Source: Amphiscolops sp. MND2022 | Lineage: Eukaryota | NCBI GenBank assembly: GCA_964187785.1 | Contig: OZ076409.1 | Span: forward strand, 75,456,001 to 75,520,000 | DNA length: 64,000 nt | Reading direction: 5' to 3' | Shown: one piece after another, positions 950 through 54,749 of the stretch | Layout of the letters: the number at the start of each line of letters is the position of its first letter | Position numbering within the stretch: position 1 is the stretch's first letter | The notes under the pieces: model-generated | What the model saw: only the letters and a program-made list of their open reading frames with translations | Database searches by the model: none | What the model was told of the DNA's origin: nothing | Made by a program: the position numbers and the translations under genes

Positions 950-982
950 GTGCGGGGGGGTAACCCCAACAAAATTTTTGGA

Positions 983-1006
983 GGATTCGGGTAGGGTCCT
1001 GAATCC
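983..1006 (+). other. Representative 5' stem-loop with TAGGGT loop
   Basis: GGATTCGGG-TAGGGT-CCTGAATCC; equivalent structure with different stems in types A-F. Confidence 0.8.
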
Positions 1007-2461
1007 GATTTTGACTCTAATAGCTATCGATAGGAAATCTTGCAAAAATTTCGGGATCTCGTGATCTAACCATAGGATTTTAAAGTTGGAGCGGCCCCCA
1101 CCAGATTTTCCGAAAATTAGCGCCCCCCACCGGGTTCCATACCCCGGAAAATTTTTTTCTGGCCACACGGGCGACCGTTAGGGGGTCATTTTAGGGGTAA
1201 AATTCATATTGGGCCACATAACTTTTTTTCTGTTGATTTAAAACTTTGGGACCCTGCTAAAAGTTTCTTGACCGTGTTGCAGTGGCTCCGGAGGTCCAAA
1301 CCAAATTTTTCTATCTTGAAGCTATCTCCAAGTACCCCCCCGCTCAAACCGTTATTTTTCCGGAAACGCAGGTTTTTGACCCGGAAGGAGTCGTCTGAGC
1401 GCGGGGTCGTTAGGTGATGTTTTGGGGACGACCTTGAGACGAAGTGGGGGACATGTAGTTTGCCAACCTCAGTTTACCCCCCGGACGGGAAATGACCGTT
1501 ATATGAGCGGCAAAAATGTCCCCCTCCACGTTTTACCGCTATTTCCGGTGTGAAGGAGTGGGAGTAGCGCGTCGGGTGCCATATATCAAAAGTAGGTTTA
1601 GACAAGGATCTATCGGAAACATGTAGTTTGGGACCCCCTGGACCAACCCGTTAGCAGGAAATGGGGCTTCCGGCCCGTTTTTTTACGGTTAAAAACGGAA
1701 AATGGGCATTGAGGGGTAAATATCTCGTGAACGCGTGGAGCTACGGTGTCCTTCACCACTACAAGGTTTCATACCCATGATATGGTGCCTTCAGGGGGGC
1801 AAACAGATTTCCGCTATCTATCACCGTTACGGACTTGGCCCCCCAGCCTAACCGCTAAGTGACCGGAAATGTCACTTTTTGAGCCCAAAGGGTCGGTCCC
1901 AGCCAGGGAACGTTAGGTAACTTATTGTAGTACTCATTGAGATGAGTTGGGGGACATAGTTTCAGTCACCCCCCGTTACCCCTTGGGACCGGAAATGACC
2001 GTTATGTGAGTAAATTTGCCATTTTTGTCCTATTTGAAGGGCATTTAGATGCGGAAGGAGTGGTAATAGGTGCTTGGACACTATATGAGGTAAGGGAGGA
2101 TATGAGGCGAGCATTCGGAAATAACCGTTATGTTGACCCCAAAGTCCCCCTGGTACCGTAAACGACCGGAAATGGTCAAATTTTGTGGCCATTGGGTACA
2201 AATGTTTGGTATTTTGTAAATAAAAGTATCTATTAGGTGTTTCGACGGTTTGCAGTAGTGAACATAGTCATGAAACCTTGTGGGGGGTAACGGGGTATAT
2301 AGCACCGGAAGTCCAAACCGTTGGACACAGGATAGGTTTTTGGTTTGAAAATGTCTTTCGGCGTACTTTTGTCGACTATTATGGACTATTATTAAATATT
2401 AAAGTTTTTCCATATAGTTTCAGAGACTCCGAAACCTCAACCAACATAACCGTTACCTTAT

Positions 2462-2505
2462 GATAGCCTTTCAAGTTGGCCTGGTGTCAACTTGGAAGGG
2501 CTATC
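2462..2505. repeat. Representative B/C/D/E-type long palindrome
   Basis: GATAGCCTTTCAAGTTGGC...GTCAACTTGGAAGGGCTATC, 44 nt. Confidence 0.9.
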
Positions 2506-2921
2506 CTTCAAAACTCGTTAATCAAGTGTGTTTTTGGGTATGTTTTTATCATTTTAGAATCAATTAAAGCTCCAAGAAAAGTTTGCCAACGACAAAAACT
2601 ATGTCGTGATGATTCCGTTATTAGAATGATGGTTAACAAAATGTTGATAAAGTTAATTTTTTACCTTTCAAATGTGTCCTAAAAGCCAGAAACTCTCTTT
2701 ACCAAAAAAATGGTTTTGATTGAATTGTATATAACAGGTAATAAAAGTTCAAATTGATTATTACGTTTCATTATTCAAGCTAAAACTTCATAACATAGTT
2801 TAATTAACGTCAACGCCACACACTTTACATCAACGCCCATCGTCTGTGGGCATGCCGAGGCATGCCCTTCGACGACATATACCAAATACATACCTAACGA
2901 CGCCCGTACATCCCGGGCTAG

Positions 2922-4207
2922 GTGCCGGGATTTCTATTCGATAAAGTATGTGGCGCGTGTGGGTAGGGTCCCTGGCGCGCTCTTGGGTATGGTGTTCACC
3001 AGCTAGGAAATAGGGGTCGATTTTTCGGGATCTCCTAAACTAGCCACACGATTTGGCTGAAATTTGGCACACGTACTCCCCTCGGCATGGTGAAGATGAT
3101 TTCCTACTGACGTTTTTCCCGCAAAATTTTTTTTGTTGTCCAAAATAACGGTTTTTGGGGTAAAATTTTGAACTTTTTTTAAATTTCATCTTATATCTCG
3201 CCACGGGTTTACGCTAGCGCTTCCAAACCCTGCTAAAGAAAGCTTGCAAACTGTCTCAGGAATGTGGTGTGAAATTTTCAGCTCAATCGGACTCAAACTC
3301 GGGGAGATATAGCGTTTTTCCGGAGCGGGGGGGTTTCATTTTTCTAACGGTCCAGCTTATCTTAGCCATTTTTTCGAAAATGTACTCGCCTAAAGACCTC
3401 CCCTGGCCGGTTTTATTCCCAACAAAACCATTTGGCCCTAAATACGGAGTTTCAGCGTTCCAGCATTCCCGGGCGAAAAGTTGTGGGACTTAGAAAAGTT
3501 CAAAAATTTTCAAAAATTTTTTTTTCCGTTTTCCGCCCTCCCCCCCTAGGGGAAAAGACCCCCCAACCAGTAATTTGAGTGAATTCATGTGGAAAGGCCA
3601 TGTTTAGAGGAGAAAAATACCGTTTAGATCGTCTTTTTATCTTGGCTCAACGTTGACTTATGACGTTTTGAAGGTGATGTTTGGAGGTGTAAAGCACGTG
3701 AATAGTAAACGTTATGAGTATTTATCTGATCTGAAAGCCATTGAGATGCAATATGGTTTGCTCAAAACGTAATTCATGGCAGTTTGGCAATCAATCAACA
3801 CCCTTTGTTGTCGTTTGACATACTTTTTTGTTGTTATAATAAAAAATTTTGTGTTTTTATTCATTTTTTTCTCATCAAATAACTTGAAACAGTTGAGTAC
3901 ATTCCATCCCCCCTTCCGGGGGAGATGAGAATGTACTCGCAAAAAGCACCGAACTACGGCCCTTACCTTCCCGAGCTACGCAGTATAAGGATTACACATT
4001 GGTTCCGACATTTTCATAGAGTTATATCTTGGTAATCTGTCTGGATATGCAGAAAAATCAGCACGTGCTTTTTTATACCAAGTTGCTCACATCGACATTT
4101 ATTTTATATCAACGCCCCCATATTTATCAACGCCCCCCGTCCGTGGGCATGCCGAGGCATGCCCTTCGACGACGTATACCAAGATATGTTCGAGCGCGTT
4201 AGCCTAG
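2922..4207 (+). mobile_element. Cassette type A1 (1286 bp)
   Basis: Starts GTGCCGGGATT, GAGTACATT palindrome 3895-3938, ends GTTAGCCTAG. Confidence 0.75.
3895..3938. repeat. Representative A-type long palindrome
   Basis: GAGTACATTCCATC...GATGAGAATGTACTC, 44 nt, in all complete A units and a variant in G. Confidence 0.9.
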
Positions 4208-4210
4208 GTG
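4109..4210 (+). other. Representative conserved end module plus junction
   Basis: TCAACGCC at 4109 and 4127; GGGCATGCC-GA-GGCATGCCC 4145-4164; TTCGACGACGTAT; CTAG|GTG 4204-4210. Confidence 0.9.
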
Positions 4211-5476
4211 GCCGTGTCTTTTCGACGTGCTTTTGCATCGAGGAGTGGGTAGGGCCCCGCGACGACCTAGAAGAATTGGATGCTCACCGAAACGTGCAGA
4301 ATTCTACGAGATCTCATAGTTTGAGCCATACGATTTTGCTGAAATTTGGCATGTGGCCTGGAATTGGTGAGTAGGTAAAACGTGTAGGAGGTGATTTTTC
4401 CCAAATTCCACTCTGAGACGAGATATGGGCAAATAACGGTCCCAAAAATGGCAAAATTGCACTTTTTTCAACTTTGTCAGCCCATATCTCGTTCCCAGGT
4501 GCCCGGAGCGGGACGCGTTAAGCTGATTATAAACTCTAGGGTGTTGAGGCGGTACGGTGAACTTTGGCCCGTTCCGATCGGACTTGTAGTCTTGGAGAAA
4601 TAACGGTATTTTTGGGAAATTTTTTCTAACGGTCCAGCTTATCTTTGCCATTTTTCGAAAATGTACTCGCCTAAAGGCCTCCCCCTGGCCGAATTTACTC
4701 CCAGCAAAACCATTTGGCCCTAAATACGGAGTTTCAGCGTTCCAGCATTCCCGGGCGAAAAGTTGTGGGACTTGGAAAAATTTCAAAAATTTTCAAAATT
4801 TTTTTTTACGTTTTCCGGGCCCCCAATGAAGGGGAAACGACCCCCCAACCCTTATTTTGAGTGAATGCATGTGGAAAGGCCATGGTTAGAGGAGAAAAAT
4901 GCCGTTTAGATTGTCTTTCTATTTTAACTTGACATTGACTTATGACGTTTTGAATGTGATGTTAGGATGTGTGAGGCATGTGAAAAGTTGATGTTTTGAG
5001 TCTTTATCTCATATGAAAGCAATTGAGATGCACGCTGTCCTGCTCAAAACGTCTTCCGTTGTAGTTTTCCAGTGCACCAGAACCCTTTGGTGTCATTTGA
5101 ACATACTTTTCTTCGGTTTATTAACATTTTTAATGTATTTATTCCAATTTTTATTATCTTATAGCTCAAAACAGTTGAGTACATTTCATCTCCCTTTCGG
5201 GGGAGATGAGAATGTACTCGCTAAAGACCTAGCGCCATGACCAAAATTTGAAGCGCACGTTTTGTATCTTCTTACAGACTTGTTTTTGTATTTTTTCGGA
5301 TTTTTCTAAAAAATAATAATATACTTGAAATACATTACTTGACTTTACTACTACATTCCACCTCCAACGTCAACGCCCCCCTGCTTGCATCAACGCCCAC
5401 CGTCCGTGGGCATGCCGAGGCATGCCCTTCGACGACGTATGCCAAATGCCCAGTGCCACGCAGTCATTTTCGCTAG
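4208..5476 (+). mobile_element. Cassette type A2 (1269 bp)
   Basis: Starts GTGGCCGTGTC, ends CATTTTCGCTAG. Confidence 0.75.
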
Positions 5477-6745
5477 GTGGCCGTGTCTTTTCGACGTGCT
5501 TTTGCATCGAGGAGTGGGTAGGGCCCCGCGACGACCTAGAAGAATTGGATGCTCACCGAAACGTGCAGAATTCTACGAGATCTCATAGTTTGAGCCATAC
5601 GATTTTGCTGAAATTTGGCATGTGGCCTGGAATTGGTGAGTAGGTAAAACGTGTAGGAGGTGATTTTTCCCAAATTCCACTCTGAGACGAGATATGGGCA
5701 AATAACGGTCCCAAAAATGGCAAAATTGCACTTTTTTCAACTTTGTCAGCCCATATCTCGTTCCCAGGTGCCCGGAGCGGGACGCGTTAAGCTGATTATA
5801 AACTCTAGGGTGTTGAGGCGGTACGGTGAACTTTGGCCCGTTCCGATCGGACTTGTAGTCTTGGAGAAATAACGGTATTTTTGGGAAATTTTTTCTAACG
5901 GTCCAGCTTATCTTTGACATTTTTCGAAAATGTACTCGCCTAAAGGCCTCCCCCTGGCCGAATTTACTCCCAGCAAAACCATTTGGCCCTAAATACGGAG
6001 TTTCAGCGTTCCAGCATTCCCGGGCGAAAAGTTGTGGGACTTGGAAAAATTTCAAAAATTTTCAAAATTTTTTTTTACGTTTTCCGGGCCCCCAATGAAG
6101 GGGAAACGACCCCCCAACCCTTATTTTGAGTGAATGCATGTGGAAAGGCCATGGTTAGAGGAGAAAAATGCCGTTTAGATTGTCTTTCTATTTTAACTTG
6201 ACATTGACTTATGACGTTTTGAATGTGATGTTAGGATGTGTGAGGCATGTGAAAAGTTGATGTTTTGAGTCTTTATCTCATATGAAAGCAATTGAGATGC
6301 ACGCTGTCCTGCTCAAAACGTCTTTCGTTGTAGTTTTCCAGTGCACCAGAACCCTTTGGTGTCATTTGAACATACTTTTCTTCGGTTTATTAACATTTTT
6401 AATGTATTTATTCCAATTTTTATTATCTTATAGCTCAAAACAGTTGAGTACATTTCATCTCCCTTTCGGGGGAGATGAGAATGTACTCGCTAAAGACCTA
6501 GCGCCATGACCAAAATTTGAAGCGCACGTTTTGTATCTTCTTACAGACTTGTTTTTGTATTTTTTCGGATTTTTCTAAAAAATAATAATATACTTGAAAT
6601 ACATTACTTGACTTTACTACTACATTCCACCTCCAACGTCAACGCCCCCCTGCTTGCATCAACGCCCACCGTCCGTGGGCATGCCGAGGCATGCCCTTCG
6701 ACGACGTATGCCAAATGCCCAGTGCCACGCAGTCATTTTCGCTAG
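5477..6745 (+). mobile_element. Cassette type A2 (1269 bp)
   Basis: Near-identical to 4208-5476. Confidence 0.75.
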
Positions 6746-8013
6746 GTGGCCGTGTCTTTTCGACGTGCTTTTGCATTGAGGAGTGGGTAGGGCCCCGCGA
6801 CGACCTAGAAGAATTGGATGCTCACCGAAACGTGCAGAATTCTACGAGATCTCATAGTTTGAGCCATACGATTTTTCTGAAATTTGGCATGTGGCCTGGA
6901 ATTGGTGAGTAGGTAAAACGTGTAGGAGGTGATTTTTCCCAAATTCCACTGTGAGACGAGATATGGGCAAATAACGGTCCCAAAAATGGCAAAAATGCAC
7001 TTTTTTCAACTTTGTCAGCCCATATCTCGTTCCCAGGTGCCCGGAGCGGGACGCGTTAAGCTGATTATAAACTCTAGGGTGTTGAGGCTGTACGGGGAAG
7101 TCAGGCCCGTTCCGATCGGACTTGTAGTCTTGGAGAAATAACGGTATTTTTGGGGAACCTTTTCTAACGGTCCAGCTTATCTTTGCCATTTTTTCGAAAA
7201 TGTACTCGCCTAAAGGCCTCCCCCTGGCCGAATTTACTCCCAGCAAAACCATTTGGCCCTAAATACGGAGTTTCAGCGTTCCAGCATTCCCGGGCGAAAA
7301 GTTGTGGGACTTGGAAAATTTTCAAAAATTTTCAAAAATTTTTTTTTCGTTTTCCGGGCCCCCAATGAAGGGGAAACGACCCCCCAACCAGTATTTTGAG
7401 TGAATTCATGTGGAAAGCCCTTGTTTTGACGAGAAAAGTACCGTTTAGAACATCTTTCTATCTTGACTCAACGTTGACTTATGACGTTTTGAATGTGATG
7501 TAAGGATGTAGGAGGCATGTGATAAGTTGATGTTTTGAGTCTTTATCTCATATGAAAGCGGTTGAGATGCAAGCTGTCCTGCTCAAAACGTCTTTCGTTG
7601 TAATTTTCCAGTGCACCAATACCCTTTGGTGTCATATAAACATACTTTTCGTCGATATATTAACAATTTTAATGTATTTATTCCAATTTTTATTATCTTT
7701 TAACTCAAAACAGTTGAGTACATTTCATCTCCCTTTCGGGGGAGATGAGAATGTACTCGCTAAAGACCTAGCGCCATGACCGAAAGTTTGAAACCCACGT
7801 TTTTTATCTTCTTACAGACTTGTTTTTGTATTTTTTCGGAATTTTTTAAAAGTTAATATACTTGAAATACATTACTTGACTTTACTACTACAATCCACCT
7901 CCAACGTCAACGCCCCCTTGCTTGCATCAACGCCCACCGTCCGTGGGCATGCCGAGGCATGCCCTTCGACGACGTATGCCAAATGCCCAGTGCCACGCAG
8001 TCATTATCGCTAG
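6746..8013 (+). mobile_element. Cassette type A2 (1268 bp)
   Basis: Starts GTGGCCGTGTC, ends CATTATCGCTAG. Confidence 0.75.
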
Positions 8014-9300
8014 GTGCCGGGATTTCTATTCGTTCGAGTATGTGGCGCGTGTGGGTAGGGCCCCTGGCGCGCTCTTGTGTTTGGGGGTTTCCTACTTCTA
8101 AATCACGTTCAGATTTCCGGGATCTCGTAAACTATCCATACGATTTGGCTGAAATTTGGCACACGTACCCCCCTCGGCACGGTGAAGATGATTTCCTTCT
8201 GACGTTTTTCCCGCTAAACATTTTTTGTTGACCAAAATAACGGTTTTTGGTGGAAAATTTTTGATTTTTTTTAAATTTTATCCTATATCTCGCCACGGGT
8301 CCACGCTAGCGCTTCCAAACCTTGCTGACGAAACCTCGCAAACTGTCTCAGGAATGCTGTGTGAAATTTTCAGCTCAATCGGACTTAAACTCGGGGAGAT
8401 ATAGCGTTTTTCCGGAGCGGGGGGGTTTCATTTTTCTAACGGTCCAGCTTATCTTTGCCATTTTTTCGAAAATGCACTCGCCTAAAGGCCTCCCCTGGCC
8501 GGTTTTACTCCCAAAAAAACCATTTTGCCCTAAATACGGAGTTTCAGCGTTCTAGCATTCCGGGGCGAAAAGTTGTGGTACTTAGTAAATTTCAAAAATT
8601 TTCAAAATTTTTTTTTTCGTTATTTGGGCCCCCAAAGTGGGGGAAAAGACCCCCCAACCAGTAATTTGAGTGAATTCATGTGGAAAGGCCATGTTTAGCG
8701 GCGAAAAATGCTTTTTAGATCGTCTTTTTATTTTAACCTGTTGTTGACTTATGTTGTTTTGAAGGTGATGTTTGGATGTGTGAAGCATGTGAAAAGGTAA
8801 TTTTTTGTGTCTTTATCTCTTCTAAAAGCCATTGAGATGCAATCTGTTTTGCTCAAAACGTAATTCAATGCAATTTGGCAGTCAATGAACACAATTTGGT
8901 GTCTTTTGTTATATTTTTCTGTTGATATAATAAAAAATTTTGTGTCTTTATTAATTTTTTTTAAATAAAATAACTTGAAACAGTTGAGTACATTCCATCC
9001 CCCCTTCCGGGGGAGATGGAAATGTACTCGCTAAAAGCCGCGAACAAGAGCCCATACCTTCCTGCGCTACGCAGTATAAAGATTGCATGTTGGTTCCGAC
9101 TTTTTGGTAGTGTTATATCTTGGTAATTTGACTGAATATGGAGAAAAATCAGCAAGTGCTCTTTTATAGCAAATTGCTGACAACGACAATTTTTTTATAT
9201 CAACGCCCCCATATTTATCAACGCCCCCCGTCCGTGGGCATGCCGAGGCATGCCCTTCGACGACGTATACCAAAATATGCGTTAGCGCGGTAGCCGCTAG
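8014..9300 (+). mobile_element. Cassette type A1 variant (1287 bp)
   Basis: Starts GTGCCGGGATT, ends GGTAGCCGCTAG. Confidence 0.75.
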
Positions 9301-10585
9301 GTGCCGGGATTTCTATTCGTTCGAGTATGTGGCGCGTGTGGGTAGGGCCCCTGGCGCGCTCTTTTATTTCGGGTACACCTACTCCAAATTCACGATGTGA
9401 TTTCGACGATCTCGTAAACTAGCCACACGATTTGGCTGAAATTTGGCACACGTACCCCCCTCGGCACGGTGAAGATGATTTCCTACTGACGTTTTTCCCG
9501 CTAAACATTTTTTGTTGACCAAAATAACGGTTTTTGGGGTAAAATTTTCAACTTTTTTTAAATTTTATCTTATATCTCGCCACGGGTACACGCTAGCGCT
9601 TCCAAACCTTGCTGACGAAAGTTTGCAAACTGTCTCAGGAATGCTGTGTGAAATTTTCAGCTCAATCGGACTTAAACTCGAGGAGATATAGCGTTTTTCC
9701 GGAGCGGGGGGGTTTCATTTTTCTAACGGTCCAGCTTATCTTTGCCATTTTTTCGAAAATGCACTCGCCTAAAGGCCTCCCCTGGCCGGTTTTATTCCCA
9801 GCAAAACCATTTGGCCCTAAATACGGAGTTTCAGCGTTCCAGCATTCCCGGGCGAAAAGTTGTGGGACTTAGAAAATTTCAAAAATTTTCAAAAATTTTT
9901 TTTCCGTTATTTGGGCCCCCAAAGTGGGGGAAAAGACCCCCCAACCAGTAAAGCAAGTGAATGCATGTGCAAAGCCCTTGTTTAGAGGAGAAAAATGCCG
10001 TTTAGAACGTCTTTTTATCTTGGCTCAACGTTGACTTATGACGTTTTGAAGGTGATGTTTGGAGGTGTAAATCACGTGAATAGTAAACGTTATGAGTATT
10101 TATCTGATCTGAAAGCCATTGAGATGCAATATGGTTTGCTCAAAACGTAATTCATGGCAGTTTGGCAATCAATCAACACCCTTTGTTGTCGTTTGACATA
10201 CTTTTTTGTTGTTATAATAAAAATTTTGTGTATTTGTTCATTTTTTTCTCATCAAATAACTTGAAACAGTTGAGTACATTCCATCCCCCCTTCCGGGGGA
10301 GATGAGAATGTACTCGCAAAAAGCAGCGAATTACGGCCCTTACCTTCCCGAGCTACGCAGTATAAGGATTACATATTGGTTCCGACATTTTCATAGAGTT
10401 AAATCTTGGTAATCTGTCTGGATATGCTGAAAAATCAGCACGTGCCTTTTAATACCAAGTTGCTCACAACGACAATTATTTTATATCAACGCCCCCATAT
10501 TTATCAACGCCCCCCGTCCGTGGGCATGCCGAGGCATGCCCTTCGACGACGTATACCAAGATATACATCGAGCGCGTTAGCCTAG
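9301..10585 (+). mobile_element. Cassette type A1 (1285 bp)
   Basis: Starts GTGCCGGGATT, ends GTTAGCCTAG. Confidence 0.75.
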
Positions 10586-11873
10586 GTGCCCGGATTTCTA
10601 TTCGATAAAGTATGTGGCGCGCCTTGGGTAGGGTCCCTTGCGCGCTTTTGGGTATGGTGTTCACCAGCTAGGAAATAGGGGTCGATTTTTCGGGATCTCC
10701 TAAACTAGCCACACGATTTGGCTGAAATTTGGCACACGTACTCCCCTCGGCACGGTGAAGATGATTTCCTACTGACGTTTTTCCCGCAAATTTTTTTTTG
10801 TTGTCCAAAATAACGGTTTTTGGGGTAAAATTTTGAATTTTTTTCAAATTTTATCTTATATCTCGCCACGGGTTTACGCTAGCGCTTCAAAACCCTGCTA
10901 AAGAAAGCTTGCAAACTGTCTCAGGAATGCGGTGTGAAATTTTCAGCTCAATCGGACTCAAACTCGGGGAGATATAGCGTTTTTCCGAAGCGGGGGGGTT
11001 TCATTTTTCTAACGGTCCACCTTATCTTTGCCATTTTTTCGAAAATGCACTCGCCTAAAGGCCTCCCCTGGCCGGTTTTATTCCCAGCAAAACCATTTGG
11101 CCCTAAATACGGAGTTTCAGCGTTCCAGCATTCCCGGGCGAAAAGTTGTGGGACTTAGAAAATTTCAAAAATTTTCAAAAAATTTTTTTTCGGTTTTCCG
11201 CCCTCCCCCCCGAGGGGAAAAGACCCCCCAACCAGTAATTTGAGTGAATTCATGTGGAAAGGCCATGTTTAGAGGAGAAAAATCCCATTTAGATCGTCTT
11301 TTTATCTTTATTCAACGTTGACTTATGACGTTTTGAAGGTGATGTTTGGAGGTGTGAAGCACGTGAAAAGTAAACGTTATGAGTATTTATCTGATCTGAA
11401 AGCCATTGAGATGCAATCTGTTTTGCTCAAAATGTAATTCATTTCTGTTTGGTAGTCAATCAACACCCTTTGTTGTCATTTGACATCTTTTTTTGTTGAT
11501 ATAAGAAAAAATTTCGTGTATTTATTCATTTTTTTCTCATCAAATAACTTGAAACAGTTGAGTACATTCCATCCCCCCTTCACGGGGGAGATGAGAATGT
11601 ACTCGCAAAAAGCCCCGAACTACGGCCCTTACCTTCCTGAGCTACGCAGTATAAAGTTTGCATATTGGTTCCGACATTTTGATAGAGTTATATCTTGGTA
11701 ATCTGTCTGGGTATGCAGAAAAACCAGCACGTGCTTTTTTATACCAAGTTGCTCACAACGACATTTATTTTATATCAACGCCCCCATATTTATCAACGCC
11801 CCCCGTCCGTGGGCATGCCGAGGCATGCCCTTCGACGACGTATACCAAGATATGTTCGAGCGCGTTAGCCTAG
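10586..11873 (+). mobile_element. Cassette type A1 (1288 bp)
   Basis: Starts GTGCCCGGATT, ends GTTAGCCTAG. Confidence 0.75.
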
Positions 11874-42732: not shown

Positions 42733-44013
42733 GTGGCCGTGTCTTTTCGACGTGCTTTTGCATCGAGGAGTGGGTAGGGCCCCGCGACGACCTAGAAGAA
42801 TTGGATGCTCACCGAAACGTGCAGAATTCTACGAGATCTCATAGTTTGAGCCATACGATTTTTCTGAAACTTGGCATGTGGCCTGGAATTGGTGAGTAGG
42901 TAAAACGTGTAGGAGGTAATTTTTCCCAAATTCCATTGTGAGAGGAGATATGGGCAAATAACGGACCCAAAAATGGGGAAAATGCACTTTTTTCAAGTTT
43001 GTCAGCCAATATCTCATTTCCACGTGCCCGTAGCGTTCCGCACGTGGACATCAATATTGCTCAGCGCTGTTGGAGGAGTGCGTGGACAAATTTTGGTTTA
43101 AATCGGACTTAAACTTGACGAGAAATTAACGGTTTTTTGGGCGTTTCCGGGGTAAATTTTTTAACGGTCCAGCTTATCTTTGCCATTTTTTCGAAAATGT
43201 ACATGCCTAAAGGCCTCCCCCTGGCCGAATTTACTCCCAGCAAACCCATTTGGCCCTAAATACGGAGTTTCAGCGTTCCAGCATTCCGGGGCGGAAAGTT
43301 GTGGGACTTGGAAAAATTTCAAAATTTTTTCAAAATTTTTTTTCCCGTTTTCCGGGCCCCCAATGAAGGGGAACGACCCCCCAACCAGTATTTTGAGTGA
43401 ATTCATGTGGAACGCCCATGTTTGGAGGAGAAAAATGCCGTTTAGCACATCTTTTTATCTTAACTTGACATTGACTTATGACGTTTTGAATGTGATGTTA
43501 GGATATATGAAGCATGTTAAAAGTTGAAGTTTTGAGTCTTTATCTCATCGGAAAACCATTGAGATACAAGCAGTTTTGCTAAAAACGATTTTCATTGTAG
43601 GTTAGCACAGTATTAGTACACTTTGATGTCATTTGAGTATTTTTTTCTTCTATATAATAACTGTTTTTATGTATTTATTCCAATTTATCTCATCTTTTAA
43701 CATCAAGCAGTTGAGTACATTTCATCTCCCTTTCGGGGGAGATGAGAATGTACTCGCTAAAAACCTAATGCTATGGCGCCAATGTTTGGATGGGAAGTTT
43801 TCTATGCTTTGAAAAAAGTTATTTTTAATTACTTGATTTTTTAAAACAATAATTAACATGAAGTACATTACTTGCTCCTACTACTACCACCATACATCTC
43901 TAACGTCAACGCCCCCTGCTTGCATCAACGCCCCATCGTCCGTGGGCATGCCGAGGCATGCCCTTCGACGACGTATGCCAAATGCCCAGTGCCACGCAGT
44001 CTTTCCCCGCTAG
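42733..44013 (+). mobile_element. Cassette type A2 variant (1281 bp)
   Basis: Close to 21746-23030; ends TTTCCCCGCTAG. Confidence 0.75.
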
Positions 44014-45281
44014 GTGGCCGTGTCTTTTCGACCTGCTTTTGCCTTGAGGAGTGGGTAGGGCCCCGCGACGACCTAGAAGAATTGGATGCTCACCGAAACG
44101 TGCAGAATTCTACGAGATCTCATAGTTTGAGCCATACGATTTTGCTGAAATTTGGCATGTGGCCTGGAATTGGTGAGTAGGTAAAACGTGTAGGAGGTGA
44201 TTTTTCCCAAATTCCACTGTGAGACGAGATATGGGCAAATAACGGTCCCAAAAATGGCAAAAATGCACTTTTTTCAACTTTGTCAGCCCATATCTCGTTC
44301 CCAGGTGCCCGGAGCGGGACGCGTTAAGCTGATTATAAACTCTAGGGTGTTGAGGCTGTACGGGGAAGTCAGGCCCGTTCCGATCGGACTTGTAGTCTTG
44401 GAGAAATAACGGTATTTTTGAGGAACCTTTTCTAACGGTCCAGCTTATCTTTGCCATTTTTTCGAAAATGTACTCACCTAAAGGCCTCCCCTGGCCGAAT
44501 TTACTCCCAGCAAAACCATTTGGCCCTAAATACGGAGTTTCAGCGTTCCAGCATTCCCGGGCGAAAAGTTGTGGGACTTGGAAAATTTTCAAAAATTTTC
44601 AAAAAAATTTTTTTTCGTTTTCCGGGCCCCCAATGAAGGGGAAACGACCCCCCAACCAGTAATTTGAGTGAATTCACGTGGAAAGCCCTTGTTTTGACGA
44701 GAAAAATACCGTTTAGAACATCTTTTTATCTTGACTCAACGTTGACTTATGACGTTTTGAATGTGATGTAAGGATGTAGGAGGCATGTGATAAGTTGATG
44801 TTTTGAGTCTTTATCTCATATGAAAGCGGTTGAGATGCAAGCTGTCCTGCTCAAAACGTCTCTCGTTGTAATTTTCCAGTGCACCAATACCCTTTGGTGT
44901 CATATAAACATACTTTTTGTCGATATATTAACAATTTTAATGTATTTATTCCAATTTTTATTATCTTATAACTCAAAACAGTTGAGTACATTTCATCTCC
45001 CTTTCGGGGGAGATGAGAATGTACTCGCTAAAGACCTAGCGCCATGACCAAAAGTTTGAAACCCACGTTTTTTATCTTCTTACAGACTTGTTTTTGTATT
45101 TTTTCGGAATTTTTTAAAAATTAATATACTTGAAATACATTACTTGACTTTACTACTACAACCCACCTCCAACGACAACGCCCCCCTGCTTGCATCAACG
45201 CCCACCGTCCGTGGGCATGCCGAGGCATGCCCTTCGACGACGTATGCCAAATGCCCAGTGCCACGCAGTCATTATCGCTAG
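44014..45281 (+). mobile_element. Cassette type A2 (1268 bp)
   Basis: Starts GTGGCCGTGTC, ends CATTATCGCTAG. Confidence 0.75.
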
Positions 45282-46550
45282 GTGGCCGTGTCTTTTCGAC
45301 GTGCTTTTGCATTGAGGAGTGGGTAGGGCCCCGCGACGACCTAGAAGAATTGGATGCTCACCGAAACGTGCAGAATTCTACGAGATCTCATAGTTTGAGC
45401 CATACGATTTTTCTGAAATTTGGCATGTGGCCTGGAATTGGTGAGTAGGTAAAACGTGTAGGAGGTGATTTTTCCCAAATTCCACTGTGAGACGAGATAT
45501 GGGCAAATAACGGTCCCAAAAATGGCAAAAATGCACTTTTTTCAACTTTGTCAGCCCATATCTCGTTCCCAGGTGCCCGGAGCGGGACGCGTTAAGCTGA
45601 TTATAAACTCTAGGGTGTTGAGGCTGTACGGTGAACTTGGGCCCGTTCCGATCGGACTTGTAGTCTTGGAGAAATAACGGTATTTTTGGGGAACCTTTTC
45701 TAACGGTCCAGCTTATCTTTGCCATTTTTTCGAAAATGTACTCGCCTAAAGGCCTCCCCCTGGCCGAATTTACTCCCAGCAAAACCATTTGGCCCTAAAT
45801 ACGGAGTTTCAGCGTTCCAGCATTCCCGGGCGAAAAGTTCTGGGACTTGGAAAATTTTCAAAAATTTTCAAAAATTTTTTTTTTCGTTTTCCGGGCCCCC
45901 AATGAAGGGGAAACGACCCCCCAACCAGTATTTTGAGTTAATTCATGTGGAAAGCCCTTGTTTTGACGAGAAAAATACCGTTTAGAACATCTTTTTATCT
46001 TGACTCAACGTTGACTTATGACGTTTTGAATGTGATGTAAGGATGTAGGAGGCATGTGATAAGTTGATGTTTTGAGTCTTTATCTCATATGAAAGCGGTT
46101 GAGATGCAAGCTGTCCTGCTCAAAACGTCTTTCGTTGTAATTTTCCAGTGCACCAATACCCTTTGGTGTCATATAAACATACTTTTTGTCGATATATTAA
46201 CAATTTTAATGTATTTATTCCAATTTTTATTATCTTATAACTCAAAACAGTTGAGTACATTTCATCTCCCTTTCGGGGGAGATGAGAATGTACTCGCTAA
46301 AGACCTAGCGCCATGACCAAAAGTTTGAAACCCACGTTTTTTATCTTCTTACAGACTTGTTTTTGTATTTTTTCGGAATTTTTTAAAAATTAATATACTT
46401 GAAATACATTACTTGACTTTACTACTACAACCCACCTCCAACGACAACGCCCCCCTGCTTGCATCAACGCCCACCGTCCGTGGGCATGCCGAGGCATGCC
46501 CTTCGACGACGTATGCCAAATGCCCAGTGCCACGCAGTCATTATCGCTAG
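45282..46550 (+). mobile_element. Cassette type A2 (1269 bp)
   Basis: Starts GTGGCCGTGTC, ends CATTATCGCTAG. Confidence 0.75.
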
Positions 46551-47818
46551 GTGGCCGTGTCTTTTCGACGTGCTTTTGCATTGAGGAGTGGGTAGGGCCC
46601 CGCGACGACCTAGAAGAATTGGATGCTCACCGAAACGTGCAGAATTCTACGAGATCTCATAGTTTGAGCCATACGATTTTGCTGAAATTTGGCATGTGGC
46701 CTGGAATTGGTGAGTAGGTAAAACGTGTAGGAGGTGATTTTTCCCAAATTCCACTGTGAGACGAGATATGGGCAAATAACGGTCCCAAAAATGGCAAAAA
46801 TGCACTTTTTTCAACTTTGTCAGCCCATATCTCTTTTCCAGGTGCCCGGAGCGGGACGCGTTAAGCTGATTATAAACTCTAGGGTGTTGAGGCTGTACGG
46901 GGAAGTCAGGCCCGTTCCGATCGGACTTGTAGTCTTGGAGAAATAACGGTATTTTTGGGGAACCTTTTCTAACGGTCCAGCTTATCTTTGCCATTTTTTC
47001 GAAAATGTACTCGCCTAAAGGCCTCCCCCTGGCCGAATTTACTCCCAGCAAAACCATTTGGCCCTAAATACGGAGTTTCAGCGTTCCAGCATTCCCGGGC
47101 GAAAAGTTGTGGGACTTGGAAAAATTCAAAAATTTTCAAAAATTTTTTTTTTCGTTTTCCGGGCCCCCAATGAAGGGGAAACGACCCCCCAACCAGTATT
47201 TTGAGTGAATTCATGTGGAAAGCCCTTGTTTTGACGAGAAAAATACCGTTTAGAACATCTTTTTATCTTGACTCAACGTTGACTTATGACGTTTTGAATG
47301 TGATTGAAGGATGTAGGAGGCATGTGATAAGTTGATGTTTTGAGTCTTTATCTCATATGAAAGCGGTTGAGATGCAAGCTGTCCTGCTCAAAACGTCTTT
47401 CGTTGTAATTTTCCAGTGCACCAATACCCTTTGGTGTCATATAAACATACTTTTTGTCGATATATTAACAATTTTAATGTATTTATTCCAATTTTTATTA
47501 TCTTATAACTCAAAACAGTTGAGTACATTTCATCTCCCTTTCGGGGGAGATGAGAATGTACTCGCTAAAGACCTAGCGCCATGACCAAAAGTTTGAAACC
47601 CACGTTTTTTATCTTCTTACAGACTTGTTTTTGTATTTTTTCGGAATTTTTTAAAAATTAATATACTTGAAATACATTACTTGACTTTACTACTACAACC
47701 CACCTCCAACGACAACGCCCCCCTGCTTGCATCAACGCCCACCGTCCGTGGGCATGCCGAGGCATGCCCTTCGACGACGTATGCCAAATGCCCAGTGCCA
47801 CGCAGTCATTATCGCTAG
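46551..47818 (+). mobile_element. Cassette type A2 (1268 bp)
   Basis: Starts GTGGCCGTGTC, ends CATTATCGCTAG. Confidence 0.75.
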
Positions 47819-49104
47819 GTGCCGGGATTTTCTATTCGACAAGTTTGCGCGCCTTGGGGAGGGTCCCTTTGCGCGCTTTAAGATCCAGGTGTTTCCAACT
47901 CCTAAACGGGCATGTGATTTCGACGATCTCCTAAACTAGCCATACGATTTGGCTGAAATTTGGCACACGTACCCCCCTCGGCACGGTGAAGATGATTCCC
48001 TACTGACGTTTTGCTCGCTAAACATTTTTTGTTGACCAAAATAACGGTTTTTGGGGTAAAATTTTCAACTTTTTTTAAATTTCATCCTATATCTCGTCAC
48101 GGGTTTACGCTAGCGCTTCCAAATCTTGCTGACGAAAGTTTGCAAACTGTCTCAGGAATGCGGTGTGAAATTTTCAGCTCAATCGGACTCAAACTCGGGG
48201 AGATATAGCGTTTTTCCGGAGCGGGGGGGTTTCATTTTTCTAACGGTCCAGCTTATCTTTGCCATTTTTTCGAAAATGCACTCGCCTAAAGGCCTCCCCT
48301 GGCCGGTTTTATTCCCAGCAAAACCATTTGGCCCTAAATACGGAGTTTCAGCGTTCCAGCATTCCCGGGCGAAAAGTTGTGGGACTTAGAAAATTTCAAA
48401 AATTTTCAAAAATTTTTTTCAGTTGTTTGGGCCCCCAAAGTGGGGGAAAAGACCCCCCAACCAGTAAAGCAAGTGAATGCATGTGCAAAGCCCTTGTTTA
48501 GAGGAGAAAAATGCCGTTTAGAACGTCTTTTTATCTTGGCTCAACGTTGACTTATGACGTTTTGAAGGTGATGTTTGGAGGTGTAAAGCACGTGAATAGT
48601 AAACGTTATGAGTATTTATCTGATCTGAAAGCCATTGAGATGCAATATGGTTTGCTCAAAACGTAATTCATTGCAGTTTGGCAATCAATCAACACCCTTT
48701 GTTGTCGTTTGACATACTTTTTTGTTGTTATAACAAAAAATTTTGTGTATTTATTCATTTTTTTCTCTTCAAATAGCTTGAAACAGTTGAGTACATTCCA
48801 TCCCCCCCTTCCGGGGGAGATGAGAATGTACTCGCAAAAAGCACCGAACTACGGCCCTTACCTTCCCGAGCTACGCAGTATAAGGATTACATATTGGTTC
48901 CGACATTTTCATAGAGTTAAATCTTGGTAATCTGTCTGGATATGCAGAAAAATCAGCACGTGCCTTTCAATACCAAGTTGCTTACAACGACAATTATTTT
49001 ATATCAACGCCCCCATATTTATCAACGCCCCCCGTCCGTGGGCATGCCGAGGCATGCCCTTCGACGACGTATACCAAGATATACATAAGCGCGGTAGCCG
49101 CTAG
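47819..49104 (+). mobile_element. Cassette type A1 variant (1286 bp)
   Basis: Starts GTGCCGGGATT, ends GGTAGCCGCTAG. Confidence 0.75.
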
Positions 49105-50390
49105 GTGCCGGGATTTCTATTCGATAAAGTATGTGGCGCGTGTGGGTAGGGTCCCTGGCGCGCTCTTGGGTATGGTGTTCACCAGCTAGGAAATAGGGGT
49201 CGATTTTTCGGGATCTCCTAAATTAGCCACACGATTTGGCTGAAATTTGGCACACGTACCCCCCTCGGCACGGTGAAGATGATTTCCTACTGACGTTTTT
49301 CCCGCAAAATTTTTTTTGTTGTCCAAAATAACGGTTTTTGGGGTAAAATTTTGAATTTTTTTTAAATTTCATCTTATATCTCGCCACGGGTTTACGCTAG
49401 CGCTTCAAAACCCTGCTAAAGAAAGCTTGCAAACTGTCTCAGGAATGCGGTGTGAAATTTTCAGCTCCATCGGACTCAAACTCAGGGAGATATAGCGTTT
49501 TTCCGGAGCGGGGGGGTTTCATTTTTCTAACGGTCCAGCTTATCTTAGTCATTTTTTCGAAAATGTAATCGCCTAAAGGCCTCCCCTGGCCGGTTTTATT
49601 CCCAGCAAAACCATTTGGCCCTAAATACGGAGTTTCAGCGTTCTAGCATTCCCGGGCGAAAAGTTGTGGGACTTAGAAAATTTCAAAAATTTTCAAAAAA
49701 TTTTTTTCCGTTTTCCGCCCTCCCCCCCTAGGGGAAAAGACCCCCCAACCAGTAATTTGAGTGAATTCATGTGGAAAGGCCATGTTTAGAGGAGAAAAAT
49801 TTCGTTTAAATCGTCTTTTTATCTTTATTCAACGTTGACTTATGACGTTTTGAAGGTGATGTTTGGAGGTGTGAAGCACGTGAAAAGTAAACGTTATGAG
49901 TATTTATCTGATCTGAAAGCCATTGAGATGCAACCTGTTTTGCTCAAAACGTAATTCATATCAGTTTGGTAGTCAATCAACACCCTTTGTTGTCATTTGA
50001 CATCTTTTTTTGTTGATATAAGAAAAAATTTCGTGTATTTATTCATTTTTTTCTCATCAAATAACTTGAAACAGTTGAGTACATTCCATCCCCCCTTCAC
50101 GGGGGAGATGAGAATGTACTCGCAAAAAGCTCCGAACTACGGCCCTTACCTTCCTGAGCTACGCAGTATAAAGATTGCATATTGGTTCCGACATTTTGAT
50201 AGAGTTATATCTTGGTAATCTGTCTGGGTATGCAGAAAAACCAGCACGTGCTTTTTTATACCAAGTTGCTCACAACGACATTTATTTTATATCAACGCCC
50301 CCATATTTATCAACGCCCCCCGTCCGTGGGCATGCCGAGGCATGCCCTTCGACGACGTATACCAAAATATGTTCGAGCGCGTTAGCCTAG
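49105..50390 (+). mobile_element. Cassette type A1 (1286 bp)
   Basis: Starts GTGCCGGGATT, ends GTTAGCCTAG. Confidence 0.75.
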
Positions 50391-51678
50391 GTGCCGGGAT
50401 TTCTATTCGATAAAGTATGTGGCGCGCCTTGGGTAGGGTCCCTTGCGCGCTCTTGGGTATGGTGTTCACCAGCTAGGAAACAGGGGTCGATTTTTCGGGA
50501 TCTCCTAAACTAGCCACACGATTTGGCTGAAATTTGGCACACGTACTCCCCTCGGCACGGTGAAGATGATTTCCTACTGACGTTTTTCCCGCAAAATTTT
50601 TTTTGTTGTCCAAAATAACGGTTTTTGGGGTAAAATTTTCAACTTTTTTAAAATTTCATCTTATATCTCGCCACGGGTTTACGCTAGCGCTTCAAAACCC
50701 TGCTAAAGAAAGCTTGCAAACTGTCTCAGGAATGCGGTGTGAAATTTTCAGCTCAATCGGACTTAAACTCAGGGAGATATAGCGTTTTTCCGGAGCGGGG
50801 GGGTTTCATTTTTCTAACGGTCCAGCTTATCTTAGCCATTTTTTCGAAAATGTACTCGCCTAAAGACCTCCCCTGGCTGGTTTTATTCCCAGCAAAACCA
50901 TTTGGCCCTAAATACGGAGTTTCAGCGTTCCAGCATTCCCGGGCGAAAAGTTGTGGGACTTAGAAAATTTCAAAAATTTTCAAAAATTTTTTTTTCGGTT
51001 TTCCGCCCTCCCCCCCGAGGGGAAAAGACCCCCCAACCAGTAATTTGAGTGAATTCATGTGGAAAGGCCATGTTTAGAGGAGAAAAATCCCGTTTAAATC
51101 GTCTTTTTATCTTTATTCAACGTTGACTTATGACGTTTTGAAGGTGATGTTTGGAGGTGTAAAGCACGTGAAAAGTAAACGTTATGAGTATTTATCTGAT
51201 CTGAAAGCCATTGAGATGCAACCTGTTTTGCTCAAAACGTAATTCATATCAGTTTGGTAGTCAATCAACACCCTTTGTTGTCATTTGACATCTTTTTTTG
51301 TTGATATAAGAAAAAATTTCGTGTATTTATTCATTTTTTTCTCATCAAATAACTTGAAACAGTTGAGTACATTCCATCCCCCCTTCACGGGGGAGATGAG
51401 AATGTACTCGCAAAAAGCCCCGAACTACGGCCCTTACCTTCCTGAGCTACGCAGTATAAAGATTGCATATTGGTTCCGACATTTTGATAGAGTTATATCT
51501 TGGTAATCTGTCTGGGTATGCAGAAAAACCAGCACGTGCTTTTTTATACCAAGTTGCTCACAACGACATTTATTTTATATCAACGCCCCCATATTTATCA
51601 ACGCCCCCCGTCCGTGGGCATGCCGAGGCATGCCCTTCGACGACGTATACCAAGATATGTTCGAGCGCGTTAGCCTAG
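50391..51678 (+). mobile_element. Cassette type A1 (1288 bp)
   Basis: Starts GTGCCGGGATT, ends GTTAGCCTAG. Confidence 0.75.
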
Positions 51679-54600
51679 GTGGTCAGTGCTGTTGCGTTCA
51701 TTTTTTTCCGGCCGTGGGGGAGGGCCCCTCTGAGGCCGGTCATTTTTCAGGTAACAGCTTTCTTATACAAAAAAGCGGGAAAAAACCTCAGTGCTCAAAT
51801 CCCAACCGTCAGAATGAGCTGAAATTTGGCATGTAGCTAGTGCATTGCAAATGATTAGGATGGGTTATAACGCTATGTTTGGCAAAATTGGTTTTGTTGC
51901 ATTTTTTTTGTCATATAGGGCCAAAAATGGCCTTTTTTGCGTATTTTTTGCTTGACTAGCTAATAACTCGCGTTGGGTTGGTACTAGCGATACGGGTGTG
52001 GGGTATGGAATTGAAAGATTACCAAGTACCTTGCTGATGACGTTATTTGATTTCCGCTCACATCACCCCCCACGCCGGAAATGCCCAATTTGTCACTTCC
52101 GGTCGCAATTTTTGACTTTTTTGGATGGAGTTAAAACCCATTTCCGGTGTGAAGGAGTGGGTTGAGCGCTTCGACCCCAATATACTAAAAGTAGGTTTGG
52201 ACAAAGTCCTATTAGGAAGAAAGTAATGTAAGCCCGTACCTATCACCCCCTCACCGGAAATAGGGGTCACGCCTCCTTTTTCTGTGTTGCAAAAGTGACA
52301 TGTGCACATTTGTCCAACTCCGAAGCCCCGGAGCACCGTGGGACCCTTATACTTTCTAAACACCTATCCCACACGCTACCGGAAGTGACCGGAAGTTTCA
52401 CCGGAAATGACATCCTTGGACCGGAAATGGTCAAAAAAGGACTTTTTCAATAAAAAAAGACACTTTTGGTGCAATTTTTAGGCAAAAAGCATAATTCGTG
52501 ATACGCTTGTTGCAGTTGAAAGGGCCATTGTTCAGCAAGAATGCATACAGCATTACGTAGCACATCAAGTGGTTGATAATTTTTCGTCCATATTATCCAT
52601 AGGACCGGAAATGGCCATTTTTGAATCGGAAATTTCTTCAGCTTGATTTTTAACAAGTTTTTCTACAATATTAGTGTAGGAATTGCTCGTCGGATGCTTT
52701 AGCTCTATTTTAAAACTAGCTGACTGCTTCTTAGAAATGTATTTCAGAAATCCCAACCAATTCGAGATTACCGGAAATGGGAGTAATTGCCTCCTTCATG
52801 ACCTTTGAATGATAAATTGTTAAAATCCGCAATTTATTTTATTCCACAACTGTTGCTCAGGTTATATCTAAGCAATAACATCTGCTTGTTTTGAAGTGCT
52901 GTATTGTGGGAGATACAAATATTGCTTTTTAATAGTAATACATACGTGATATTCGCCGCAATAAAGATTTTTCAAATCAACCATTTTGAAGTCCTACTGG
53001 TGTTCCGCACACCCGAAATAATTTAAGTTTCTAGTTTCGATTTTCAGCCTTCCGCGACTATTGAGTTGAGATGATAGTTTTCACGTTCTCTGCAAAACGG
53101 GCATTTCATTGTGTATGTGACATTTATTGGGTTGTTTCACATGGTAATTCAAAACTAATTGATCATACAATTTAGAACAATTGAAAATTTTCAATTGAAC
53201 AATAAATGTTTTAATAATTTCTCTTTCGTTAAAGATACTCTTTTGTGGCCATTAGAACAGGTTGAATTGGTTGAATAAGTAACCAGTGCGATACATCGTT
53301 TAATACATACCGTTTGACATCGTTTTCTTGCGAACAAAGACAAGCATGATTTGTTGGAAGTTTTTACCATATCGCTTCAAATCGATCGTGACAAACAATG
53401 AATTTCTCGTTTTAATTGCTACTTCGAAAGCAGCCTGAAAACGCAAATCGATCTATTGAGTTATGGAGATGCAACTAAGCATTTCAAGTCTGGGTTTCAA
53501 TTTAATTCTATCACTCCGGACTATTTTTATGTCGCAAAAGTGATAAAGGGTGTTAGCAAGGTTAAAAACATCGAACAATTTTAAAAATAATGCCTTCGGA
53601 AAGGGAAGAAAAATGAGTTTTCCTGTCAAAACAATGATAACCACGTACGAAACATCAAGTATTTGTATTGTTCAATAGTCCAAAACATGAATGAAGTTTT
53701 TAAATATCCAAGAGTTTCCAATCAAGCATGCGTTTCAAATGTCTCACAGGGCAGCATCGTTTTCAAAAAACAGTGCTTTCAATGTGGTTTCATACCAGCA
53801 AAACGAACGCAGGCACAACCACATTCTCAAAATTCTTGCACAACAACCAATTTCTTTGAAAATCCTATTTGATTCCTCAAGGTATATGGTGAGAACCCTG
53901 TTGGGTTCCAAAGTTGATGTGCTGTTTCCTTGGGTTTGCGAGATAAGTTACAACGGAAATCTGAAAGCAGGTCGTCTCAATAAAATACCTGTTGCTCTTT
54001 AAACGATTGGACTTAAGTAGTCGAAATTTATTCTCAGACACTTTCGATCAGAGAATGTTTGAGTCCTAACGTTCGAATCAGGTTGGTTTCAGGTGGCTCG
54101 AAGTGCCAGCTGAACCAACCTTTCAAATAAAGAAAAACCCCACATCTCCCTTCATGCCACGCTACCCCGTATAGCGTTTCAACTTGACAGAAATTGGAAC
54201 GTTTGATTTTGGCGTCGCTTGGGATTGACACACCAGTGTTGATACTAAATTTGGCAAAGAGGAATCGCAGAAATGATTGTTTCTGTTTTTTCCTTTGATT
54301 TAGTGTGTCGAGCGTACAAAGCAGTTTGGGAAACTAACTTGCATTTCCACTGAACGAAAAGCAAAAGTAGTAACATTGAAAACTTCCGGAATAAATTTAA
54401 TCAGGTTTCCGTATTTGTGAGATCAGCTGCCACTCAGTTATCAGTTACATCTTTCAAATTTTTAAGAACAACTAATCAAACTTTGCTCGACTCTCTTGGA
54501 TAAGGCAACAATAGTTTACTAATCTGTACTCGTGGAAAAAAGTCAACTGCCGTGTCAAAAACAATCTGTATGTAACTTTTCTCTCGTGCAAAGTTATTTT

Positions 54601-54749
54601 TTACCCCCTCTGACTCAACTATAGCATGTACGTAATGAAACCAATAACACCTTCAACTGTTAATCAACGCCCACCGTCCGTAGGCATGCCGAGGCATGCC
54701 TTTCGACGACGCGCGCCGGAAACAATCTATCGGCGCCACCCGCTTCTGG
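51679..54749 (+). mobile_element. Cassette type F, single copy with unique cargo (3071 bp)
   Basis: Starts GTGGTCAG, 5' stem-loop 51708-51739, B-like block near 52141, end hairpin 54682-54701, ends CTGG. Confidence 0.7.
52790..54620. other. Non-repetitive AT-rich cargo inside cassette F, possibly decayed coding sequence
   Basis: No similarity seen to other units; lacks the ACCGGAA/poly-C/poly-G texture of the array; only short interrupted frames; boundaries approximate. Confidence 0.55.

Follow-up and report, generated by a model that had tools for sequence, protein, structure and literature searches.

The 64,000-nt window analyzed here (the whole stretch, positions 1..64000, + strand) lies on contig OZ076409.1 (C1) of the 1.07-Gb genome of Amphiscolops sp. 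MND2022 and is a mixed head-to-tail array of non-autonomous Helitron-like units, 44 of them complete and falling into nine clusters. The units are 1.3–3.1 kb long, run from GTG to CTAG in one orientation and near-random order, and are joined at CTRG|GTG, with 45 such junctions counted. The longest reading frame in the window is at most 162 aa. The array region that contains the window spans about 70.4 to 76.5 Mb of C1.

Downstream of 44 of these 45 junctions stands a stem-loop with the constant core GGG-KAGGG(G)Y-CC, 37–46 nt past the junction and at an offset of 39 nt in 25 cases, where the first-pass annotation of this DNA had placed it. A GGG/CCY inner stem closes a 6–7 nt loop with the core (T/G)AGGG(T/C), many loops reading GAGGGY, and bulges are frequent in the outer stem. 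The window contains 40 copies of GGGKAGGGYCC, all on the + strand and against 0.06 expected, and four further copies carry the GGGG loop variant; in the 264 kb around the window, 187 loops lie on the + strand and none on the - strand. The sole junction without a loop belongs to the unit at 57441 (family G), which had indeed been named as the only loop-less unit type in the window. The pairing stems that the annotation placed at 983-1006, 17230-17253, 34621-34642, 33335-33361, and 51708-51739 are present and fold as stated, and each is more stable on + than on -. Among 65 distinct hairpins, 55 are more stable on the + strand and 4 on the - strand, in agreement with the proposal that the structure works on one strand.

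The outer stems were further claimed to covary, which two kinds of test bear out. Over 18 stem types, native arm pairs folded at -8.6 kcal/mol versus -5.8 for chimeric ones (0 of 20,000 permutations), while in an ungapped 19-row alignment with a fixed 9-pair register 76.6% of the cells were paired versus 62.3±2.9 after shuffling, with 30 two-sided changes versus 15.6 (0 of 500 shuffles), all without correction for the kinship of the families. Registers slid along the same alignment left 33–55% of the cells paired. From the ungapped alignment, RNAalifold recovered no more than the 4 inner pairs because bulges shift the outer stem. The covariation of the 5' stem-loop thus exceeds chance, and a selected, single-stranded structure of the + strand is supported. 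It is highly improbable that the stems were merely inherited, without selection, from a common ancestor: the families are related and the shuffles uncorrected for relatedness, but outer stems have been swapped wholesale with pairing kept, and the loop recurs in elements whose proteins are only 25–33% identical.

Table 1. Features of the window discussed in the text.
Feature	Position	Strand	Remarks
3' subterminal hairpin of upstream unit	876..895	+	GGGCATGCC-GA-GGCATGCCC; ~55 nt before unit end; most but not all families
Unit junction CTAG|GTGC	946..953	+	upstream 3' end 946-949, next 5' end from 950; fits CTNG^DT
Family B unit	950..2921	+	non-autonomous, 1,972 bp
First small 5' hairpin	956..967	+	variable loop, weaker; most families
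5' stem-loop, family B	983..1006	+	GGATTC/GAATCC outer stem, loop TAGGGT
GTGCCGGG family unit	2922-4207	+	5' stem-loop 2953..2980, bulged GCGCG/CGCGC stem
GTGGCCGTGTC family unit	4208-5476	+	5' stem-loop 4240..4268, inner stem and loop intact, outer stem weak
Family C unit	15816-17196	+	5' stem-loop 15853..15872
5' stem-loop, family B variant	17230..17253	+	compensatory A-T/T-A swap
Unit	33301-34588	+	5' stem-loop 33335..33361, 7-nt loop variant, GCCAT/ATGGC stem
Unit	34589-35976	+	5' stem-loop 34621..34642, GGCGC/GCGCC stem
Unit	40038-41455	+	5' stem-loop 40077..40105, AGGCT/AGCCT stem, offset 46
3,071-bp unit	51679..54749	+	5' stem-loop 51708..51739, CCGGCC/GGCCGG stem
Family G unit	57441-59631	+	long hairpin 57468..57503, same position, without the constant loop

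A wider collection of 326 junctions was drawn from the window, 200 kb of neighboring DNA, and nine further array loci; it admits only junctions with the loop, a G-type start or the upstream hairpin and so misses units that have none of these. The terminal tetramer is CTAG at 309 of these junctions, CTGG at 15, and CTCG at 2, so that 324 of 326 fit CTRG under a rule that demanded CT[AGC]G. The start that follows carries the loop in 314 cases, belongs to family G in 10, and is mutated or cut off in one each. Units of ~1.3 kb make up 226 of the 314 collected units and come from several families, and other peaks lie at 1.4, 2.0, and 1.1 kb; a preferred size for array units is possible. The main 3' hairpin places its second arm 52–66 nt ahead of the unit end. 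Between junction and loop, the first small hairpin scored -2.0 over 37 types versus -1.0 for shuffled sequences, the mononucleotide shuffles making this a lenient test. In several families, GA steps flank both sides of the stem (e.g. CGAG/CGAG), where tandem G-A pairs could form. The idea that the loop guides the end tetramer by base pairing was rejected on inspection, since CTGG-ending families have T and G loops alike, without covariation.

A Helitron_like_N search picked up, with low scores, frames of ~2,375 aa that cluster at 71.6–76.5 Mb of C1 on the array strand, and all 10 fetched loci proved to be array members with an open frame of 2,350–2,603 aa. Seven of these autonomous elements have clear bounds from GTG to CTRG and are 13.4–14.5 kb long, while two others measure 12.0 and 17.0 kb between detected junctions. 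They occupy the same arrays as the non-autonomous units, are bounded by the same junctions, and mostly begin with the same 5' hairpin, and transposase families just 29–30% identical co-occur there behind the same kind of start. By Pfam, Helitron_like_N and PIF1 domains are found in all of the proteins, and a GIY-YIG domain in two of the three proteins of one scan and, at the C-terminus, in most of the clade; the HUH, Y-x3-Y, and helicase motifs are intact, and the best PDB matches are Helraiser, Pif1 helicases, and SLX1. Over the initial ~900 bp and the final 86 bp, the 3,071-bp unit of the window matches at 96–98% a 14.1-kb autonomous element that encodes a 2,545-aa Rep-Pif1-GIY-YIG protein. 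Three further window families have 5' segments in common with autonomous elements at about 70–80%, all within the first ~770 bp. Judged by these sequence matches, the window units are non-autonomous derivatives of HUH-Rep/Pif1 rolling-circle transposons. A tyrosine recombinase (Crypton) partner was considered and rejected, PF00589 having given 4 weak matches, none in the arrays examined.

Of the earlier proposal of a selected structure in either single-stranded DNA (ssDNA) or RNA, the selection and the strand stood, while the choice was narrowed, because descent from HUH-Rep/Pif1 rolling-circle transposons favors ssDNA. In the Helitron class the + strand alone is transposed and a double-stranded circle is passed through (PMC6431247), and G-T pairs that work on + alone fit an element of which only this strand moves (PMC6431247). 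A structure in the left-end transcript, whether a leader element, a protein-binding site or a ribozyme, would suit the G-T/U pairs and flanking GA steps equally and lies on the same strand as the Rep coding sequence. However, the hairpin is kept by elements without open reading frames (ORFs), which need DNA cis-signals alone, and stands 1–3.4 kb upstream of the Rep frame where there is one. An Rfam search for a known RNA family or ribozyme gave no match at gathering thresholds, and nothing points to self-cleavage, a test of which had been suggested; we consider an RNA role very unlikely.

In most autonomous elements a second frame of 277–389 aa follows the Rep frame, and its homologs adjoin the Rep frame in 10 metagenome loci. 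A PDB sequence search with this second ORF found no match. Its single-sequence fold reached a pLDDT of 29 and its alignment-based fold 66, and the model resembles OB-fold ssDNA binders, namely MCM10 (Z 8.8), RPA (7.4), and telomere end-binding protein (TEBP, 7.2), with an archaeal RPA as best Foldseek match. The top Atlas match was POT1 at 0.93 with low recognition, and the MCM10, RPA, and TEBP folds tie (Z 7–9). The predicted structure resembles an OB-fold ssDNA binder and does not look specifically POT1-like. Frames of 220–240 aa were also seen before or after the Rep frame (L029:4003-4719, L042:4359-5015); they may encode an SGNH hydrolase-like protein, for which the L029 frame gave a sub-threshold DUF459 hit.

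The second protein raises the alternative that, after excision, the single-stranded circle begins synthesis of its second strand at the hairpin, with primase recruited via the OB-fold protein or host factors. The hairpin works on + only, and the protein has a fold close to the OB domains of MCM10, RPA, CST, and telomere proteins, some of them partners of Pol alpha-primase. A possible parallel is the single-strand origin ssoA of rolling-circle plasmids, which has a conserved 6-nt loop. The double-stranded circle of Helitrons (PMC6431247) also fits this role. Priming, however, needs no fixed distance of 37–46 nt from the end and leaves the preference for junctions unexplained, so that this role appears improbable.

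A search with the Rep region returned 69 proteins, the most distant at 24% identity; many of them have GIY-YIG, and one comes from the tunicate Styela clava. In that species the clade member P0060, which carries an OTU domain, is annotated as an uncharacterized host gene; it is likely a transposase. In a Rep + helicase tree, 18 relatives separated with 100/100 support from two HLE1-like and five DUF6570-bearing elements of this genome. The HLE1-like references were labeled by Pfam score and lack of DUF6570, and the program flagged long branches; L214 was dropped as a near copy of L209, and L211, L213, L216, L219, and 8 P rows were left out. Among 47 metagenome loci, the strict loop occurs 4 times, in three independent elements (L088/L089, L090, and L095), against 0.17 expected, and none of 300 shuffles reached three. 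Each of these loops lies on the Rep strand, outside the frame and on a new stem, and L095 has CTGG|GTGG 28 nt upstream of its loop. The Rep proteins of these elements share 25–33% identity with P0001. A covariance model run over 463 kb, including 18 HLE1/HLE2-like control loci whose ends are perhaps not covered, found the same four matches and nothing more. Viral contigs scanned for relatives yielded none. Intact-looking HLE1-like and DUF6570-bearing HLE2-like Helitrons also occur in the Amphiscolops genome (L205-L222), with the loop absent from the 10 kb fetched.

The target site was read from element flanks. Among 35 matches to array 3' ends, with G excluded from matching, CTAG is followed by A (23) or T (12) and never by C, and T stands at +2 in 28 of 30 inspected 3' flanks, some of which may be fragments, while three more end before GT. 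The 5' flanks of 12 insertions outside arrays read CTAG five times, CTTG twice, and CTGG and CTCG once each, with three exceptions (CTNG in 9 of 12). One comparison of a filled with an empty site, in a tRNA-derived repeat, places the insertion at CTAG^AT with zero duplication, and a 5' flank tetramer unlike CTAG in some other insertions fits this lack of duplication. The repeat itself (L227-L238) has at least 45 copies and was a target once. For another insertion, L161, the search for an empty site found two filled copies and no empty one. The target is mostly CTNG^DT; as the elements run from GTG to CTAG, every end-to-start junction therefore recreates it.

A preference for existing junctions is suggested by the placement of one 2-kb family, of whose 44 exact copies 34 are internal to arrays, 4 last, 1 first, and 5 solitary. 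Thus 38 of 44 directly follow the end of another element, for which the rough random expectation is ~0.4% (4,865 end motifs versus ~1.3 million CTAG^DT sites, from a density of 1,225 per Mb measured on 56 kb of non-array DNA). In the order of 192 consecutive units, at the subfamily level, 6 of 191 neighbor pairs are alike versus 3.6 expected, and repeated doublets number 6 versus 3.1. The arrays fit one-by-one insertion better than block duplication. It is conceivable, though unlikely in our judgment, that the hairpin is a real cis-signal while the arrays arose untargeted, through concatemers, unequal exchange, and loss of dispersed copies, a rival to the targeting step only. Tandem Helitrons are known (PMC5148889), neighbors are somewhat alike at the family level, and solitary copies exist. 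Yet most neighbors belong to different subfamilies or families, blocks are scarcely duplicated, the junctions are precise (CTRG in 324 of 326), and rolling-circle concatemers would yield identical repeats.

The hairpin is probably a + strand DNA signal; a protein encoded by the element would recognize its fixed loop, and this would place the Rep nick. HUH transposons in general are recognized through hairpins at their ends (PMC10288648). The Helraiser transposase nicks the left end and peels off the strand, and in the circle that it then closes CTAG is joined precisely to the element start; exchanging the stem of its 3' hairpin while keeping the loop retained ~90% of activity, which was not kept when the loop was changed (PMC4778049). 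The formation of the present structure on a circularized monomer, as proposed earlier, fits this known circular intermediate by analogy (PMC4778049), and the circle joint would be identical to an array junction. In the mechanism that we propose, the loop would be a protein-read signal, the reader being the Rep-Hel protein or the OB-fold protein, and would fix the Rep nick ~39 nt upstream at CTNG^GTG. Rep-Hel would then nick and peel off the + strand, and the circle would be closed with a joint made of CTAG|GTG plus hairpin. The same joint in the chromosome may be recognized far better than a bare CTNG^DT; with junction plus hairpin as the better substrate, new copies of any family would therefore land at existing junctions and build mixed arrays. 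The SLX1-like GIY-YIG domain might, speculatively, cut or resolve a branched intermediate. TAGGGT resembles the telomeric repeat and the elements encode an OB protein, but as many loops read GAGGGY this is no more than a lead.

Alternatively, the hairpin might be a stop or pause signal, with the helicase overrunning CTAG (one circle round or at the upstream unit end) and stalling, and the closing nick of Rep made behind it. The Helraiser hairpin is a loop-dependent terminator (PMC4778049), five autonomous elements with ~2,375-aa proteins lack a large 3' hairpin of their own, and a trailing nuclease would suit the fixed distance to CTAG. Against this, solitary copies have no hairpin past their 3' end, yet one family with 5 solitary copies looks young, and most families possess a separate strong 3' hairpin. 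We regard this role as rather improbable, though marginally less so than that of a second-strand origin.

Several observations weigh against the hairpin as an origin and targeting signal. Family G, with 10 of 326 junctions in several subfamilies dispersed across arrays, lacks the loop, and the abundant GTGGCCGTGTC family (37 of 314 hairpins) has an outer stem that is nearly nil (-2 to -3 kcal/mol, z +0.9); the loop and a long stem are therefore not strictly needed for copying. Many young mobile units without the loop had been named as evidence against a selected structure, and family G goes part of the way. Of 314 units, 31 lack the 3' hairpin, and five of these are autonomous elements with ~2,375-aa proteins that keep the 5' loop, so that the bipartite site postulated with the hairpin of the upstream end is not obligatory, even if most units do have it. 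In Helraiser, the terminal 40 bp contain what determines cleavage (PMC4778049), but the present loop starts at about +40. About eight metagenome loci with 1.4–10 kb of upstream sequence, among them L102/L103 with >5 kb, gave no loop match; either the loop is not universal among the relatives, or their ends lie beyond the contigs. As for targeting, none of 30 genomic 3' flanks carries a KAGGG motif 25–70 nt downstream, and the hairpin is therefore not required in the target; array-edge copies (4 last versus 1 first) show no significant preference for the side that attracts insertion; like neighbors at the family level number 51 versus 32 expected of 191; and purifying selection or loss of dispersed copies could inflate the array share.

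By their Y2 HUH Rep fused to Pif1, the elements belong to the Helitron superfamily, but their ends, target, and marker domains differ from those that define HLE1 and HLE2. With HLE1/Helraiser (PDB 7LCC; PMC4778049) they share the Y2 HUH Rep and Pif1, the 3' CTRR, the absence of target duplication, an ORF that points to the CTRR end, and a hairpin in which the loop is more important than the stem. HLE1 elements, however, start with TC rather than GTG, insert at A^T rather than CTNG^DT, and carry their 3' hairpin ~11 nt before the end, whereas here it stands ~50–60 nt before the end or is absent, and the constant-loop hairpin is 5'. The C-terminal GIY-YIG, the strong stacking at own junctions, and the separate clade further distinguish our elements from HLE1, as represented by the HLE1-like references of this genome. 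HLE2 elements (Helentron, Helitron2, HINE/DINE-1, proto-Helentron; PMC11417382, PMC4067079, PMC5148889) have in common with them a large transposase, near-end hairpins on both sides, a fused endonuclease, OB/RPA-like and OTU passengers, and abundant non-autonomous derivatives. Their target is T^T, unlike here, and the clade is separate from the HLE2-like elements of this genome. Of 118 end pairs, none reaches 12 nt with one mismatch, as in cross-family pairs, arguing against the 11–18 nt inverted repeats of HLE2; complementarity between the 5' and 3' ends is weak and short only. No DUF6570 or AP endonuclease match was found in the clade proteins scanned, while 9 of 9 HLE2-like controls carry DUF6570. 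HELIANO describes one captured GIY-YIG, in a Sphagnum HLE2, whereas the domain occurs throughout the clade here.

The third Helitron clade of Paramecium (PMC13085455), compared by description only, likewise falls outside HLE1 and HLE2 and shows oriented, site-specific insertion into a target that resembles its own 3' end. Its elements, however, end in CCAA and insert in telomeric repeats, GIY-YIG is unmentioned in the main text of that source, and no Paramecium sequence is among our Rep-region protein matches. IS91 and IS200/IS605 (PMC10288648) share HUH enzymes, insertion beside a tetranucleotide without duplication, and imperfect subterminal hairpins that arise on just one strand. They are prokaryotic and have no fused helicase, unlike the elements here. 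Replitrons have a Y1 Rep without helicase and terminal direct repeats, whereas here a Y2 Rep is joined to Pif1. Neither IS91 nor IS200/IS605 is known to build megabase mixed arrays. A literature search, with Repbase reports and subscription papers outside its scope, found no account of a GIY-YIG Helitron clade, of the loop or of such mixed arrays.

Left-end recognition and target choice of Helitrons are largely open questions, the tested element having no defined 5' structure and inserting at A^T. Here, natural variation offers dozens of stems around one fixed loop, a fixed cut distance, and intact young transposases, which opens both the recognition of the origin and the choice of target to direct tests. 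If such a DNA transposon does integrate chiefly at its own junctions, satellite-like arrays of megabase size would have a new way of arising, and the element would be a candidate for ssDNA integration with a site preference. The lineage also adds to the Helitrons a distinct set of ends, target, and endonuclease, and tools based on TC/CTRR or inverted repeats would likely miss it. More tentatively, and with less than even confidence, we envisage a widespread, undescribed clade of Helitrons with Rep-Pif1, SLX1-like GIY-YIG, and OB-fold proteins, in which the element's own junction with its ancient, telomere-like (T/G)AGGG(T/C) stem-loop might be the origin and at the same time the favored place of integration. 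This one address would be common to families of only ~30% identity, whose megabase cassette arrays would resemble integrons and spare host genes, and the loop would be read by the OB-fold protein.

Further observations concern individual units and array edges. In the family G unit, a degenerate second 3' hairpin (59348-59402) lies ~200 bp ahead of the present one, as if an old end had been bypassed and a new one acquired. The motif ACCGGAA(A/G)T, which we take to resemble an ETS-factor site, is repeated many times within window units (e.g. 1-60, 1470-1500, and 52370-52440). Family-B variants are present in the sequencing run that we examined. At L063/L064 (C1, about 23.977 Mb), two arrays of opposite orientation meet, with a final CTAG adjoining the 5'-end fragment of an inverted unit, and at L061 (C1, about 24.02 Mb) a small array begins at CTGG in an apparent intron, beside an opposite-strand exon for an RNA-recognition motif identified by eye.

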